Shown here: positions 10,301 to 56,100 of the stretch, piece after piece
Position numbering within the stretch: the stretch's first letter is position 1
Layout: each line of letters opens with the position of its first letter
Assembly: GCA_951406725.2 (NCBI GenBank)
Contig: OX597815.1
Span: 117,180,001 to 117,244,000, forward strand
DNA: 64,000 bases
Source of the DNA: Octopus vulgaris
Taxonomy: Eukaryota
Direction of reading: 5' to 3'
Position numbers and translations under genes: made by a program
The notes under the pieces: generated by a model
Seen by the model: the letters and a program-made list of their open reading frames with translations, nothing else
Told to the model about the DNA's origin: nothing
Database searches by the model: none

Positions 10301-13300
10301 ATGCGCTTGCTCAATCCAACATGTTATATGATAGAAAAATTATGGGTTATTTTAAAAAATGAAATTGGTTGTATGGAAAATAAAATAAAATTAAAATATG
10401 TTTACACTCACTGATCCACAGCAATAATGTTTCCTTCACATATTGATGACTATAATAGTTAGTAGAGCAAAATGGCTACTAACTATTATAGCCATCAATT
10501 CTTTTACTTGTTTCAGTCATCTGACTTCAGCCATGCTGGAGCACTGCCTTTAGTCGAGCAAATTGACCCCAGGACTTATTCTTTGTAAGCCTAGTACTTA
10601 TTCTATTTGTCTCCTTTGCTGAACCACTAAATTACAGGGACGTAAACACACCAGCATCGGTTATCAAGCAATGTTGGAGACAAACACAGACACACAAACA
10701 CATGCATGCACACACACACACACACACACATGATAGGCTTCTTTCGGTTTCCGTCTACCAAATCCACTCACTAGGCTCTGGTCGGCCCTATTCTATTGTA
10801 GAAGACACTTTGCCCAAGGTGCCATGTAGTGGGACTGAACCTGGAACCATGTGGTTGGTAAGCAAGCTACTTAGCACACAGCCACTCACTGGTCATAACC
10901 TGTTATGTATTTAATATGTAACAGAATAGGATGCAGTGGACATTGTGTATGTAACTTGGTGCTCATTATTCTATCTCTCAATTTTAAGTATGATAATTAT
11001 CAAGGGCATTGTTAGATAAATGCTCAAGGACATTCTTAGATAAATGCTCAGCTTGATAAGCAAAAGAGAAATACCAACTTCTTATGGTTACTGAAGCTAC
11101 TGTTGCAACAGATTTTCATTTCTTTTTTTCTTTTTTCTTTTTGACTGGCTAAAAAGAAGTCTATTTGTATATTTCATATAATATTGATGTCTCCAAACCT
11201 CTCTCTTTGCATCCTTGCATCCTAAATAAGGATGCAAAGAGAGAGGTTTGGAGACATCATTATGAGAGGCTGCTAAATAAGGAAAATGAATGGGATAAAG
11301 AGAGTTTGCCGAATGTCGACCCAACAGAGGGACTAGCTATCCGAGTTGACAGTACCTTAGTAGTTAAGGCAATTAGTAGCATGAAGACAGGGAAAACCCC
11401 AGGCTCATCAGGAATTACTGCAGAGATGCTTAAAATATCTGGTAGTGTCGGCTATAGCCTAGTCACCCGTATAGTTAACCAGGTGATACATGAAGGAGTC
11501 ATACCCAATGACTGGTGTAGCAGCATAATAGTCAACTGTTACAAAGGTAAGGGTGACGCTTTAGATACAAATAATTACAGAGGTATCAAACTGTTGGATC
11601 AGGTAATGAAGGTTACGGAGAGGGTCATAGCCCAACTGATTAGGGAGAGAGTCAGCTTGGATGAGATGCAGTTTGGTTTCGTGCCAGGAAAAAGCACCAC
11701 TGATGCCATATTTCTGGTGAGACAGCTGCAGGAGAAATACCTAGCCAAGGATAAGCCCTTTTTCTTGGCTTTCGTTGACATGGAGAAAGCCTTTGACAGA
11801 GTCCCCCGATCCCTTATCTGGTGGTCAATGAGGAAACTAGGGATAGATGAATGGTTAGTGAGAGCTGTGCAAGCCGTGTACAGAGACACTGTAAGTAAGG
11901 TGAGGGTTGGCAATGAGTACACTAAAGAATTCAAAGTAGAGGTAGGGGTCCACCAAGGTTCAGTCCTCAGTCCCCTCCTATTTATCATAGTCCTCCAGGC
12001 AATAACGGAGGAATTCAAGACAGGATGCCCCTGGAAGCTCCTATACGCTGATGACCTTGCTCTAATTGCTGAGTCACTATCAGAACTAGAAGCAAAGTTT
12101 CAAGTGTGGAGACAAGGATTAGAATCGAAGGGCCTTAAAATCAACCTGGCTAAAACCAAAGTCTTAATATGTAGGAAGGCAGGCAAATCACAAACTCCTT
12201 CAGGTAGATGGCCCTGCTCGATCTGTAGAAAAGGCGTAGGTAGAAACTCCTATAAGATGCACCAAGTGTAAGCTATGGACACATAAGAGGTGCAGCAATG
12301 TCAAAGGAAGGCTAACTGGGAAGATAGTCTTTGTATGTGGCAGATGCTCAGGAGCAATAAACACTGAAAATGCTCAGAGACCAACTTTCACCACATTCCA
12401 GGGAGAAAAACTAGAAGTAGTTGATAGCTTCCGTTACCTAGGTGACCAAGTCAGTAGCGGGGGGTGGGGGTGGGTGCTGAAAGTGTAACTGCTAGAGTAA
12501 GAATAGCCTGGGCAAAGTTCAGAGAGCTCTTACCTCTGCTGGTGACAAAAGGCCTCTCGCTCAGAGCAAAAGGCAGACTGTATGACGCGTGTGTACGAAC
12601 AGCCATGCTACATGGCAGTGAAACATGGGCCGTGACTGCTGAGGATATGCGTAAGCTCGCAAGAAATGAAGCCAGTATGCTCCGATGGATGTGTAATGTC
12701 AGTGTTCATACTCGACAGAGTGTAAGTACCCTGAGAGAAATGTTGGACCTAAGAAGCATCAGTTGTGGTGTGCAAGAGAGACGTTTGCGCTGGTATGGTC
12801 ATGTAGCGAGAATGGATGAAGATAGTTGTGTGAAAAAGTGCCACACCCTGGTGGTTGAGGGAACCTGTGGAAGAGGTAAACCCAGGAAAACCTGGGATGA
12901 GGTGGTGAAGAACGACCTTTGAACTTTTGGTCTCACCGAGGAAATGACCAGAGACCGAGACCTTTGGAAGTATGCTGTGCGTGGGAAGACCCGGCAGGAC
13001 AAGTGAGACCATACCCGTGGCCGCTACCTGGGACGTAGCCAGCCCACTTATGCATACCGTTCCTTCTTGTGACACAAACCCTACTTGTGAAGACCTGTTG
13101 AGGCAAGTGAAAATGAAAATCAAAATGAAAATCAAAATTGAAATCAAAATCTCTCAACATCAATGGAAATTGTAGCTGAGATACCAGTGCCGGTGGCACA
13201 TAAGAGAACCGTCCGAACGTAGTCGTTGCCAGCGCCGCCCCGACTGGCCTCCGTGCTGGTGGCACGTAAAAAACACCATCCGATTGTGGCCGTTGCCAGC

Positions 13301-38600: not shown

Positions 38601-41600
38601 ATTGTGTGTCTGTTTATTTTAATCACAATGTATATAAAGAAAAATATTGATGAGTCCACATAAAACTCATACATACCATGTGACTGGTGGTTTTTAATTA
38701 TTTAAACTAATACACAGCATTTATTATCTATTCATTAGGAGTTTAATACACAACATTTTTCTTGAATTATTTGTTTTTATTTTGTCTGTTATACTTCTAA
38801 ACAATTTTATTCCTTATTTGATATCTCTAGATAGCTCTTATTAAGTAAATTTCTTTTATGGGGAAAGTCAGTAAAGCCTTTAACAGACTTTCATGCTTTT
38901 CTCTTCAAATGTAATTCAACTTTTGTATACATACATATATTTATTGGTTTTGAATTTTAGCACATTTGGGGGAAGGGGTAAGTTGATTATATTGACCCCC
39001 AGAGCTCAACTGGTACTGTTACATCGACCCTGAAAGGATAAAAGGCAAAGTTGACCTTGGCACAATTTGAACTCAGAACATAAAGATGGACAAAATGCTG
39101 CTAAGCTCTTTCCCCAGTGTGTTAACGGTTCTGCCAGCTTGCTGCCTTATAATTACTCTAAAATATTACTGGTAATTGTTTGATACAATCCAGAGATAAT
39201 CAAAGTTTTTTTTTCTATGGTTTGAAGTAGGAATTATACTCTACTGAGCAGCACAGCTTAAAAATCAGCATTCTAAATTAAACTTTCACCCATCTTTCAA
39301 ATCTCGACTAATGAGTTTCTGTTGTTTTTTTCTCAAATGTAATCCTTCAGTTCTATCTGTAATTGTATGTTGAACTTACTTGACTTTGGGATTAATAATC
39401 TGATTCATGTGTTCTCACCACTCAGCATAGTTGGTACTTCAAGCATGATTTGCTTGCTGTAATAATCAATAAATTTATATTGAACTTTGATAATTGCTTA
39501 ATCAATGTATGATATTAAAATAAAGGATTACATTGTTTGTAATACATTTAATTTGTTGTAATATCACAAATACATCATCATCATGATCATCATCGTTTAA
39601 CATCTGCTTTCCATGCTAGCATGGGTTGGACGATTTGACTGAGGTTTGGCAAACCAGATGGCTGCACCAGACTCCAATCTGATCTGGCTGAGTTTCTACA
39701 GCTTGATGTCCTTCCTAACGTCAACCACACCGAGAGTGTAGTGGGTGCTTTTATGTGCCACCGGCACGAGGGCCATTCAGGTGGTACTGGCAATGGCCAC
39801 GTTCAGATGGTGCTTTTTATGTGTCACCTGCACAGGAGCCAGTCCAGTGGCACTGGCAACGACCTCGCTCGAATGTTTTTGTCACTTGTCACCAGCACAA
39901 GTGCTAATAAGGTGACGCAGGTAACGATCACGCTTGAATGGTGTCAACATGCCACCAGCATGGAGGCCAGCTTGTTGCTCTAGCAACTATGATATACCAC
40001 TTGTATGGTACTCTTAGTACTATTAGCTTTATTAGTTTTGAACTTTTTAAGCATGGGAATTACTAGGTTTGGAGCAGTCATAGCTGTGTTGTTAAGATGC
40101 TTGCTTCTCAGTGATGTGATCTCTGGTTCAGTCTCACTGTGCAGCTCCTTAGTCAAGTGTCTTCTACTATAGCCTTTGGCTAACCAAAGCCTTGTGAGGG
40201 GATCTGGTAGACAGAAACTGAAAGAAGCCCATCGTACATGTGTGTATGTAACCTTGCCTTAACATCATGTGATGGGCGTAAACAAGCATCACCATCATCA
40301 TACAAGTGAGAATGTTAATTTTCAGTCACCCATTAAAAATATATCTAACTGTGGGGTAATATTAATTGGTATGGGTTGGTGACAGAAGGGCAGATGGCCA
40401 TAGAAAAATGTACCTCAACAAATTCCGTTTGACCTGTGTAAGCATGAAAAGTGGAGATTACATAATGATGATAATGATGATTAGATTTATTCAATATATT
40501 TTTATTTATGATACATTTATGATAAGTTTTTATTTATTTTGTAGCGTAAAACAATGGCAGATATGAAAATTCTTTTACGAGAATCTGCTGAGAGAGAACA
40601 AGATTTGCTTCAAGAAAAACAAGAATTATTAAGAAAGGTAACACTAATTATTGGTCCTTATATTATCATTGTTTCTCTCTGTGAATGTTGCTCTGAAAGT
40701 TTCGGGAATTTCCTGGTTTTCTTGACCATCTTTATAATTTCAGTTGGCCTCCAGTTGTTAATATTCCACATATAGATCCTACATGTTATTGTTGGTGTAG
40801 CTATTTAATTGCTAGTGGAGGCGCAATGGCCCAGTGGTTAGGGCAGCGGACTCGCGGTCATAGGATCGCGGTTTCGATTCCCCGACCGGGCGTTGTGAGT
40901 GTTTATTGAGCGAAAACACCTAAAGCTCCACGAGGCTCCGGCAGGGGATGGTGGTGATCCCTGCTGTACTCTTTCACCACAACTTTCTCTCACTCTTACT
41001 TCCTGTTTCTGTTGTACCTGTATTTCAAAGGGCTGGCCTTGTCACTCTCTGTGTCACGCTGAATATCCCCGAGAACTACGTTAAGGGTACACGTGTCTGT
41101 GGAGTGCTCAGCCACTTACACGTCAATTTCATGAGCAGGCTGTTCTGTTGATTCGGATCAACCGGAACCCTTGTCGTCGTAACCGACGGAGTGCTTCCAA
41201 ATTTAATTGCTTCTATATTTTTGTATTAAGCACACTTTTTAGCACTAGGTTGCCTACTAGATGTACATTTTTAATGTAATTCCTCAGACCTCTGTGAACA
41301 TAGGAAGTATGAATTATTGATAATCATAAAACAAGGTGTTTGTTTGAATCAAGATGTCAGGTGAAGTGTATTTGAGATGGTATTGATGTATCTTTTTGCA
41401 GTGAGAGAGAAAAGAAAAACAATTCTGAAATGCCTCAATATTTTGTGAGAGCCTAAGAAAGCCAGTGGATCAAATAGTCGAGATAGTTAGCCAAAAGGTT
41501 TATTACAAGCATTGTTAGAATATAAAGAGAGAAGAAGGCATTGGTTTATCAGAGTTAAATGTGGAAATGTTTAAAGCATCATGGTATGTTGGTACTGTAC

Positions 41601-50795: not shown

Positions 50796-50838
<43 letters not shown>

Positions 50839-51661
50839 CAAGGAAAAATTGTAAAAATGCAGAATGCTCAAATGAAAGAAAATTTTAATGAAATGAGAAA
50901 TTGATAAAATATATAAATATATATTTATTCAAACCGGTTTTCGTCATTGTGTGACTTGTCAAGAATATGTACATATCTATTATTATTCTTTTGCAAAAAA
51001 CAATGCAATTTTCTTTTTTCCCCTTTCTAATTTTTAAAAAACTTTTTAACCTAAATATTCTTGACAAGTCACACAATGACGAAAACCGGTTTGAATAAAT
51101 ATATATTTATATATTTTATCAATTTCTCATTTCATTAAAATTTTCTTTCATTTGAGCATTCTGCATTTTTACAATTTTTCCTTGCTTATCATTTCTCCAT
51201 GTGCAGTCAACACAACCCCACCATTTATTGATCTATAAATATATATATATATTTATACTAGCAGTATAACCCGGCCTTGCCTGGGATTAAGTTACGATTA
51301 TTAAGCTAATCAAGTTCTTTATTTCAAACCAAACTAAGTAATATTAACGTCAAATTTGGGAAAAATCCGTTGAAATTGGTTTATATATATATATTATATA
51401 TCACAATCAAGGAACGGCCATAATAGGCCATTCACCCACTAGAAATAACAGAACTCAAAATAACATATTCCATTAAAATTTTTAATTTTCTCCTGGTTTC
51501 GGATATATATTTCTAGTGGGTGAATGGCCTATTATGCCGTTCCTTGATTGTGATGTTGAACTTATAAATGGTCTATGACTATTTAATTTTTTCCCACTAG
51601 GCCGTGGTGGCAAAAAATTCTACAAAATTTTTTTGCCACCATATATTGATTAATTATATAT

Positions 51662-51708
<47 letters not shown>

Positions 51709-52847
51709 ATATAATATAATATAATATAATATAAATATATATGGGCAACACACACGTACGTACGTACACCTATTGCATGTTTTGTGCATGCATACATGTT
51801 CATAAACAGAAATGAATGGAAAAAATGTTGGTAAATTTGTAGATTAACACTTGCACAATTTTCACTAAGAAAAAAATCGTTTTTTTTGTGTGGAAGCAAC
51901 TACTCTGGCCTCCGAATATGCTACAAAACTCTTTTTTTGGTCCGTGAAATGGAGTGGGCTGTGGTGGAAGCCTCGGAAATTGTACCCATTTATATTGTGT
52001 AATTCACTGACAAACTGTTACCTACCTCTTTGTTTCTTTGTTGTTAAATAAATGGATTCTCAACAAAACACCTTTTTACTCAGCGTAAAATAAAAACAAA
52101 ACTCTTTCGCACTCAGAGTAATGTGTGTGTGAGAGGGAGTGGGGAGAAAGATGAACGATTTAAAATAAATGTATTGTAAATGTTGTGTGAGAAAGTATAT
52201 TTACTATGATCATAAAATATAGTGTCTTTCAAAAACATCCTAAATTTGAACACCATATCTCGTGTTTAAGAAAAAACAAAACATTTTACATTATATTTTT
52301 TATGAACGTCGTCACTTACTCTCTCTCTCACTTTGTCTTTCCCTTCTTTTTTGTTTAGACGCTGTGAAACTCTCTGCCTCTCTTCCACTTTTCTTTACCT
52401 TGTTTTTTTGTTAGCCACTCGGCAAACTATCTCCCACTCTTCCTTACACTTACTTTTTCTTTACTATTTTTGTTAGACGTTGCAAAACACTCTCTCACAC
52501 ACACACACACATACATCAACACACAACTTCTCTCTCTCTCCCTCACACACACACTTTCGCTTGGCTATGGCTAGAAGAGACTTAACACATGTCATCAACC
52601 TTCAAAATAGGTAAAAGCTATGGTTGAAAATAAATTTTTACTGCTAAAAGCTATGGCTGAAAATAGATTTTTACCCCCCCCCCCGCTATCCACGGGTGCC
52701 TGGGGGCGGGGAATAAGTTGACAAAACCCAGATAGGATGTTGACGAATGTCCTCCTAAAATTGGAGCGACATGCGTGCTAATTTGTGGACGTGTATAAAT
52801 TACAATCACGTACACACACGCACAGACATCATGCCTTTTATAGATCC

Positions 52848-52933
<86 letters not shown>

Positions 52934-53184: not shown

Positions 53185-56100
53185 CATAGATTTGTACGAG
53201 GAGGTACTGAAAAGTTCCTCGCTTTGGGTAAAAGAAGATACAGGAGAATCAGTTAATTATGATTTTATTCAACATATTCTCCTCTCAGATTCACACACAC
53301 TTATTGCAGTGCTCCTGTAAAAGAGCTCAGAAGGTTGGGCCTCCAGTCGGGCCTTTCATGATATCCTTAAGGCCAAGAACTTTACAGCACTCCCTTGTAT
53401 ATATGTATGTATGTATGTGTACCACACACATTCATTTTCACACATAAACAAAACCATATACGCATATATACACATGTCAAGTATTTATAGGGTAACAAAA
53501 ATGATTCTAGAAGTGCTATTACCAGCTTGTATATTATCTTATTCGGAAAGTATTCATAAAATTGCCAGAAATGCCATTGACCAATTTGTCTTTGAGAAAA
53601 AGATTAGACTATATTGAGATAGACTAAAGATTAAAGTTCAGAGGTTATTTATGTTTTACTTGACATTTGGGCTGTTTTGTGTAAATAATGAGAACAACTA
53701 TATTTTGTTAGAGATCGTTAAGTTTATGTCTACTAGTTGAAATGTTAGTAATATCAGATCAACTACAAATTTATTTGTTTATTTCATTATCCATACTGTT
53801 TTAAAGGTATTAAATTTAATATTTCAAAATCTATTTAATTTTGCAATGAAGGAATTTTTGTACTAATGGTCTTAAAGTTAAAATACATTAAAAGATTATA
53901 ATTTCAGCTCTAATAATGCCAGGTATCGTTCACTCTCTGATTTAAGCATAAATTTCTACTTTGTAAAAACTTAGCCTTTTGGAATGTTCTTTCAATGTGA
54001 GAGTAAATGTATTTACTTATATTGAAATTATCAATATGTTGTATGGTGTTATCTGTAATTGTTGACTCATCTTTTTTGTTGAGCCCATATCATGATAGTA
54101 GTAATTCTGTTATCTGTAACAAAGTATATTTCTAGAAGAAATTGTGACTTATGTTGCATCAGACTGCTGAATTATTCTTACACTAATCCAAATCACTATT
54201 CTTTAATTGTGGCTCACATCTGTCTTTAAAATGTATTTTTAACCTGCAGAATATATAGCTTTCTTATTTTGTTACTTATTTTAGGCTTTTTTCTTTTCTA
54301 TGAAAATTTCTCTCTTATAATGTTCATTTGATATTTGTGTTCTGATTAATGTAAAAATGTATCTTGAAAGTTTAGTTGATCTCTCTTATCAAGCTGAAAT
54401 TAAAAAAAGAAATTGATTTCAGGTTAACAATAAGTGAACTGCAAAGCGAGAAAAATGAACTTTTCAAAGAAGTGAAACTTCTACAACAAAAGCTCCATGG
54501 GGAAGTACCAAAAGTAAGTAAAATATTCCCAGTCTTCTATGAAAAACATGTTTGGGGCATGGGAAATATTAGCTTGCTTGGAAAAAGATGAGGGTTTGTG
54601 ACAGGAAGGGCAGCTGGCTGTTGAAAATCTGCCTCAAATTCCATCTGATCCAGCAAACATGCAAAAGTGGATGCTAAAAATGGTGATAATCATTATGATG
54701 ATACATTGTCTATTTATTGTTTCAGATGACTGAAGACATGTTACAGAAAGCTAGAAGCTATGATTCTTTAATATCTAAAAACACAGAGCTTACAGTACAA
54801 CTGAAAACATTGAAACTTGAAAAAGATAAACAATCCTCAGAAATTTTCCAGGTAAGATATTCTTTTATTCTTTTACTTGTTTCAGCCATTTGATTGCGAC
54901 CATGCTGGAGCACTGTCTTTAGTCAAACAATTTGACTTCAGGACTTATTCTTTGTAAGCCTAGTACTTATTCTATTGGTCTCTTTTGCTGAACCGCTAAG
55001 TTACAGGAATGTAAACACAACATAGGTTGTCAAGCAATGGTGGGAGGACAAACACAGACATGCAAGCACAACATAGGTTGTCAAGCAATGGTGGGAGGAC
55101 AAACACAGACATGCAAGCACACACACGACGGGCTTCTTTCAATTTCCATCTACCAAATCCACTCACGAGGCTTTAGTCGGCCCGAGGCTGTAGTAGGAGA
55201 CACTTGCCCAAAGTGCCACACAGTGGGACTGAACCTGGAACCATGTGGTTGGGAAGCAAGCTTCTTACCTCACAGCCATTCCTATGCCTCATAAAAAAAC
55301 CCTAATAGAATGGTGTTTCGAAACTGTAAGATCAAAGATTTTCAATTTATGCTTCCCTTGGTCATTAAAATTGCCAAATTATAATTGTTCACAATGAATC
55401 AGTCATTTGATACTTTCTGTCATTGAATTGCGAGCTGGCAGAATTGCTATCATGTCAGACAATATGCTTACTGACATTTCTTCTCGTACTTTATGCTCTG
55501 AGTTCAAATATGGCCAAGATCAACTTTGACTTTCATCCTGTTGGAGTTGATAAAATAAACAGCAGGGGGATCTAGGATTTTTTTTGGGGGGTGTTGCTCA
55601 AAAGTTTCTGAAAAAATACTATATATGGTGGGAATTCATAACAAATGGGACACATTTTTATGTATTCTTTGTTGTAGCAGACCATAAGCATATGAAACAG
55701 TAATGCTGTGAAACTGCCGGAAATAAAATAACAATGTTATTATTTTTGTAACAGTGCAGCTAGAAAGGATGTTGCCCGGGCAACTAGGGCAACACCCCTG
55801 TATCCACCACTGATAAGTACCAGCTGAGCATTGGGGTCAGTGTCATTGACTTCTCTTTCCCCTAAAATTGCTGGCCTTGTGCCAAAGTTTAAAACCATTA
55901 TTATGATTAAGTAGTGAACTAACAGAGTCATTAACACTTTAGACAAAGTGCTAAGTGGCATTTCTTTCATCTCTTTATAGTCTGATTCAAGCATGGCCAA
56001 GTTCAACTTTATTTTTCCTCCTGTTGGGGTCAATAAAATAACTACCAACCAAATACTGGGACCAATGGCATTGACTCACTCCCTTCCTTAAATTTCAGGC

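Follow-up and report, generated by a model that had tools for sequence, protein, structure and literature searches.

Penelope-Like Elements and Their Hammerhead Ribozymes

The closest described relatives of the octopus insertion considered here are canonical endonuclease-positive Penelope-like elements (PLEs) of the Neptune and Nematis type. In the parts of PMC8557442 drawn on here, these elements carry a hammerhead ribozyme in a pseudo-LTR, occur as 5'-truncated copies, and are accompanied by an adjacent inverted copy that is itself 5' truncated. They insert into (TA)n targets and bear a tail of 30–40 bp at one end. Their protein places a reverse transcriptase (RT) first, then a CX2-5CXXC linker motif, and then a GIY-YIG endonuclease with a CCHH motif. 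These features recur in the octopus family, where the tail is 45–48 nt long compared with the 30–40 bp given in that account.

The ribozyme also has precedents. The part of PMC4209133 (2014) used here describes hammerheads with a U3–A8 core, minimal motifs with a palindromic helix III in metazoan PLEs, and pairs of motifs on opposite strands, 100–700 bp apart, that were attributed to truncated PLEs. Palindromic helix III and opposite-strand pairs are likewise found in octopus, and the hammerheads of that account, with the U3–A8 Cercyon variant of Schistosoma mansoni among them, further share with the octopus motif the U3–A8 core, a G10.1–C11.1 pair, and a short stem I.

The anole element PAc belongs to another clade, Poseidon. 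The portions of PMC11167929 relied on here describe an AT-rich target, an AC-rich tail between two fixed ends, and a hammerhead in the pseudo-LTR, as in octopus. In PAc the open reading frame (ORF) begins inside the hammerhead, whereas the ATG of the octopus element lies about 170 nt past the predicted cut, after the tail. In vitro, both strands of AT-rich DNA were cleaved and extended with the anole element, with starts at two sites flanking the tail, and protein-assisted hammerhead cleavage was also found. A further comparison is with non-LTR retrozymes (10.64898/2026.07.22.740005, in part), which are noncoding, use a type I hammerhead, and are related to PLEs, like the octopus copy. Retrozymes are defined there by tandem units; they consist of tandem direct monomers, whereas the octopus sequences form an inverted pair within a truncation series. 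Literature searches on Penelope with hammerheads in octopus and on Neptune in cephalopods found no description of the present family, although Repbase or Dfam may hold it.

An Inverted Pair in a CEP290 Intron

The window is a 64-kb stretch of the Octopus vulgaris genome (contig OX597815.1, positions 117,180,001 to 117,244,000). A PF16574 domain (E 1.9e-13) identifies the host gene as CEP290, and 16 matches to a 1426-aa protein with this domain lie colinear on the plus strand, spanning 1568–56603. The insertion sits between two of these exon matches, as an earlier note on this DNA had proposed in placing it in a CEP290 intron. Another probable exon was recognized by inspection at about 54423–54513, roughly 3.2 kb downstream of the fold-back. 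For the last exon, the ESM Atlas yielded nothing useful. The features of the locus are as follows.

40545–40649, plus strand: nearest upstream CEP290 exon (homologue aa 1237–1271, E 5e-4)
50799–50833, no strand: (TA)n microsatellite, presumed left half of the target; family loci terminate at TA or TC microsatellites
50834–50968, minus strand: arm 1, an inverted, tail-less, 5'-truncated pseudo-LTR copy, −38 to +96 from the predicted cut
50926–50967, minus strand: second minimal hammerhead with a U3–A8 core, within arm 1 (descriptor match)
50969–51234, plus strand: main 5'-truncated copy, the final 266 bp of a pseudo-LTR from an RT-GIY-YIG Penelope-like element
51056–51097, plus strand: minimal type I hammerhead motif with a U3–A8 core (stem I 5 bp, stem II 4 bp, 8-nt palindrome at helix III)
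51190–51234, plus strand: PLE tail, 45 nt, AC-rich, at one end only
51235–51257, no strand: interrupted short TA run, presumed right half of the target
54729–54857, plus strand: nearest downstream CEP290-matching exon (homologue aa 1331–1373, E 3e-5)

The arms at 50834–50968 and 51055–51189 are perfect reverse complements over 135 bp, as the earlier note had stated. Any further extension brings a mismatch, and a match of 138 nt at 99% is the same pairing once one mismatch is tolerated. The 86 bp between the arms, taken at first for a spacer, are Penelope-like sequence, and the main copy comprises this stretch together with arm 2 and the tail. Flanking (TA)n had been described on both sides; it is present on the left at 50799–50833, while the right side has only the short, interrupted run.

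The proposed type I layout could be placed in full. On the plus strand, stem I (51056–60/51093–97) encloses the core from U3 to A9 (51061–67), stem II (51068–71/51077–80), G12 to A15.1 (51081–84), the palindrome (51084–91), and U17 (51092), with the predicted cut at 51092|51093. The core boxes and all three helices of a type I hammerhead are thus present, helix III having 2 bp in the monomer and 8 bp in a dimer, and the core carries the published U3–A8 variant, as had been claimed. A relaxed descriptor accepting C3–G8 or U3–A8, run on both strands of the 64-kb window, matched the two arms and nothing else, so the window has no second sense copy by this descriptor. An Rfam scan gave no hammerhead among its 17 hits at E ≤ 10, and the isolated 81-mer has a folding energy like that of its shuffles (z −0.31); both results are expected of a minimal, A/U-rich motif.

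Other repeats lie in the same gene. One begins directly after the PLE (51256–52860), has 2326 candidates genome-wide, and contains a perfect 29-bp inverted repeat (51419–47/51508–36); at other loci it includes a tandem unit of about 490 bp, and its ends presumably mark it as resembling Helentron/DINE-1-like elements. Another CEP290 intron holds the remnant of a LINE-type reverse transcriptase at 11153–12919 on the plus strand, with frames of 372 and 154 aa.

The Parent Element

The repeat is abundant in the octopus genome. A search for copies returned 1721 candidates, and the 40 that were scored gave 43 matches at 93–100% identity; a strict hammerhead pattern had 909 exact matches genome-wide compared with 0 for the reversed control. 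Thirty family loci were fetched, two of which resemble a segmental duplicate. All 30 share the same 3' terminal base, followed by a TA or TC microsatellite, and their 5' ends are ragged.

The same segment that forms the 3' end also precedes the coding region. A query with the 5' part of the ORF retrieved 25 loci, and in 20 of them the segment sits 29 nt before the ATG, which makes 50969–51234 part of a pseudo-LTR; in tandem copies, the tail likewise reads on and reaches the start of the ORF after 29 nt. Family members encode an RT together with a GIY-YIG domain at the C terminus in one frame (RVT_1 above the cut-off; GIY-YIG, at E 0.0015, below it), and the parent protein has the CX2-5CXXC linker ahead of the C-terminal GIY-YIG with CCHH. 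The truncation series is continuous from short copies up to elements coding for RT and endonuclease (EN). Judged from its sequence, 50969–51234 closes the pseudo-LTR of an autonomous Penelope-like element whose motifs are of the Neptune/Nematis type. The linker, the CCHH-bearing GIY-YIG, and the (TA)n target fit Neptune and are equally traits of Nematis. The traits of the Naiad clade, an N-terminal endonuclease and the lack of a canonical hammerhead, were not found in the family.

These results uphold the link to Penelope-like pseudo-LTRs that the earlier note had drawn, and the copy-number and linkage check that it had called for ties a high-copy repeat to an RT-GIY-YIG parent. Its view of the insertion as a nonautonomous, retrozyme-like element is not supported: the insertion is a 5'-truncated copy of the autonomous element, and the fold junction differs from locus to locus.

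Other observations concern the coding region and its surroundings. About 1450 nt after the ATG of the parent, an ORF1-like frame and the RT frame, which lies in −1, share a T TTT TTA heptamer where they overlap; the heptamer is unchanged in 24 of 25 loci, and the conserved RT N-terminal motif has no preceding ATG. This arrangement is likely to be a programmed −1 frameshift, as read from the sequence; a 74-nt fold gave no sign of a stimulatory structure. According to the legend of Figure 1 in PMC8557442, the part of that source relevant here, a frameshift can set ORF1 apart in some PLEs. Close homologues of the PLE protein carry the labels of bivalve bacterial symbionts in six entries, probably reflecting host contamination of those assemblies. 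Upstream of one PLE copy lies a 292-aa transposase frame (locus L031, 4260–5135), which we take to be mariner-like.

Fold-Backs Across the Family

The fold-back is the usual product of this Penelope-like family. Among 30 loci found with a query that omitted the hammerhead, 18 have an inverted piece upstream. Counted from the predicted cut, it stops at +93 or +96 in 11 of these, the window included; the end of arm 1 thus recurs in 10 of the 29 other loci. Main copies end at +141 rather than at +93/+96, giving two fixed right-hand end points 45–48 nt apart. Near-perfect arms are frequent elsewhere (69/69, 187/188, 137/138, and 185/189 positions), and longer arms reach 827 bp at 99.3% and 3144 bp at 99.4%. 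These values leave aside the arm alignments at L123, L129, L131, L132, L141, and L143, which cross the fold or match another copy.

The order of the arms is also constant. On contig C1, 90 hammerhead motif matches fall into 69 clusters, 19 of which contain an opposite-strand pair, and all 19 run minus then plus, with none in the reverse order. With this geometry, the antisense arm comes first in a transcript of either strand. The claim that the antisense arm is transcribed first in CEP290 is therefore correct, but the order results from the geometry of insertion, and nothing about it is particular to CEP290.

The window copy is young, as had been proposed on the identity of its arms. Its two private substitutions, at 51200 and 51205, are CpG-type transitions that lie in the tail; the 270 bp of the arms have none. 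The restriction of private changes to the tail slightly favors homogenization of the arms or selection on them, at very small numbers.

Conservation and Predicted Activity of the Ribozyme

Across 29 other copies, departures from the column majority amount to 3 of 287 cells in the core, compared with 22 of 114 in loop II and 12 of 23 at N7. The flanks depart in 47 of 512 cells upstream and 12 of 590 downstream, so that the downstream flank, at 98%, is conserved as well. One stem I pair is changed on both sides in a single subfamily (7 of 101 contexts), probably as one event, an observation that comes partly from ten hand-picked rows. Covariation within the motif amounts to this one pair. The pattern of variation offers thin evidence, from sequence comparison, for selection on the hammerhead in source elements. 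Against strict selection, one U is missing behind the helix III palindrome in 48 of the 101 hammerhead contexts, the longest young copies included, with the register shifted by an extra A or the pair 15.2–16.2 broken. The canonical C3–G8 pattern has 3 matches genome-wide compared with 1 in the control, none aligning to the element or its protein, so the family shows no covariation between C3–G8 and U3–A8.

Folding predictions suggest that the single sense hammerhead in the window is inactive on its own. The monomer ribozyme fold is at +2.1 kcal/mol compared with a minimum of −3.9 kcal/mol, and the computed energies of the palindrome self-duplex and the arm–arm duplex are −10.1 and about −205 kcal/mol. 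By analogy with the anole hammerhead, which cleaved when protein-bound in the experiments taken from PMC11167929, activity in vivo may be possible despite this folding energy.

Genomic 5' ends have no peak at the predicted cut. One of 48 lies within 5 nt of it, where about 2 would be expected, by hand count, from an even spread of the 32 ends that fall between −125 and +30; the query for this count starts 27 nt past the cut, and two short inverted matches at −2 to +28, an internal A/T palindrome, were dropped. Seven of the 32 near-motif 5' ends fall at −53 to −62, in an A/T run directly upstream of the hammerhead, a cluster that may be due to microhomology or alignment-end bias. Contigs presumed to derive from RNA have the parent's upstream sequence at 50968 and hence come from other copies; 1 A>G row was seen among 17.

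Origin of the Fold-Back

The best explanation for the locus, with a probability of about 0.93, is that the 5'-truncated end of an autonomous PLE lies head to head with a tail-less inverted copy of itself, both likely resulting from one insertion event in a (TA)n tract, and that the hammerhead was inherited with them and is predicted to be inactive. The mechanism can be sketched by analogy with the anole PLE, a member of another clade (PMC11167929, in part). The GIY-YIG endonuclease would nick both strands of the TA repeat, and reverse transcription would start from the tail end at one nick and from an internal site at the other. Both cDNAs would terminate early, and their ends would be fused head to head with an overlap of about one base. 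In CEP290 pre-mRNA, the arms would form the predicted 135-bp duplex, which would be spliced out together with the intron and could be a passive substrate for ADAR. ADAR in animals acts chiefly on young repeats, as reported in the portion of PMC9989829 used here, and editing of the duplex is plausible for that reason. The CEP290 hairpin is probably a commonplace dead insertion rather than a host switch.

Two other readings assign the fold-back a different source. A separate nonautonomous, retrozyme-like fold-back element, mobilized as a unit, would be short and of high copy number with a type I hammerhead, as observed, and PLE pseudo-LTRs have been argued to be a source of retrozymes (10.64898/2026.07.22.740005, in the part drawn on here). 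The absence of tandem direct monomers from the window, the variation of fold junction and arm length between loci, and a truncation series that reaches RT-EN elements largely refute this reading, which is extremely improbable. The inverted arm might also be an artefact of assembly or of a library fold-back; the arms are identical, and public DNA contigs break at repeats, with none crossing the arm junction. Arm 1 nevertheless has the internal end point (+96) that is fixed in the family and seen at other loci, the locus is asymmetric, with the 86 bp and a tail on one side only, the flanks are unrelated, and other fold-backs have differences between their arms. An artefact is likewise exceedingly unlikely.

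The remaining alternative concerns function. The earlier note suggested that the fold-back explains tolerance of the ribozyme in an essential gene and could form an ADAR-sensitive switch. On such a reading, an active ribozyme in CEP290 pre-mRNA would be held shut by the antisense arm, and ADAR editing would either free it or abolish its activity. The predicted stability of the duplex (about −205 kcal/mol), formed with the antisense arm first, the concentration of ADAR editing on young repeats, and arms free of private changes compared with two in the tail are compatible with such a host-co-opted device. Editing of core adenosines is expected to destroy a hammerhead rather than free it, which counts against the switch. 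So do the antisense-first order of all 19 C1 pairs and on both strands, and the youth of a copy with two private changes. No lock is needed for tolerance, since the monomer fold is unfavorable and the window has no second sense copy to act as a partner in cis; in the part of PMC4209133 consulted for this point, cleavage was undetectable for single minimal PLE hammerheads. A co-opted switch is therefore very unlikely. A broader version, in which head-to-head PLEs silence their own hammerheads and the CEP290 copy is one of hundreds of latent cleavage switches dependent on ADAR or on element protein, is similarly a very long shot. The head-to-head insertion of a truncated PLE remains the preferred reading.

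Implications

The CEP290 insertion is one of several hundred hammerhead-bearing young PLE copies, with a layout that is already in print. If cleavage or editing were to alter CEP290 output, its importance would be much greater. Across the family, the fold-backs are expected to supply long double-stranded RNA in introns. The family also makes a usable young data set, with near-intact RT-EN frames and arms that reach 3 kb at identities above 99%, that bears on the origin of the inverted copies and tails of Penelope-like elements.
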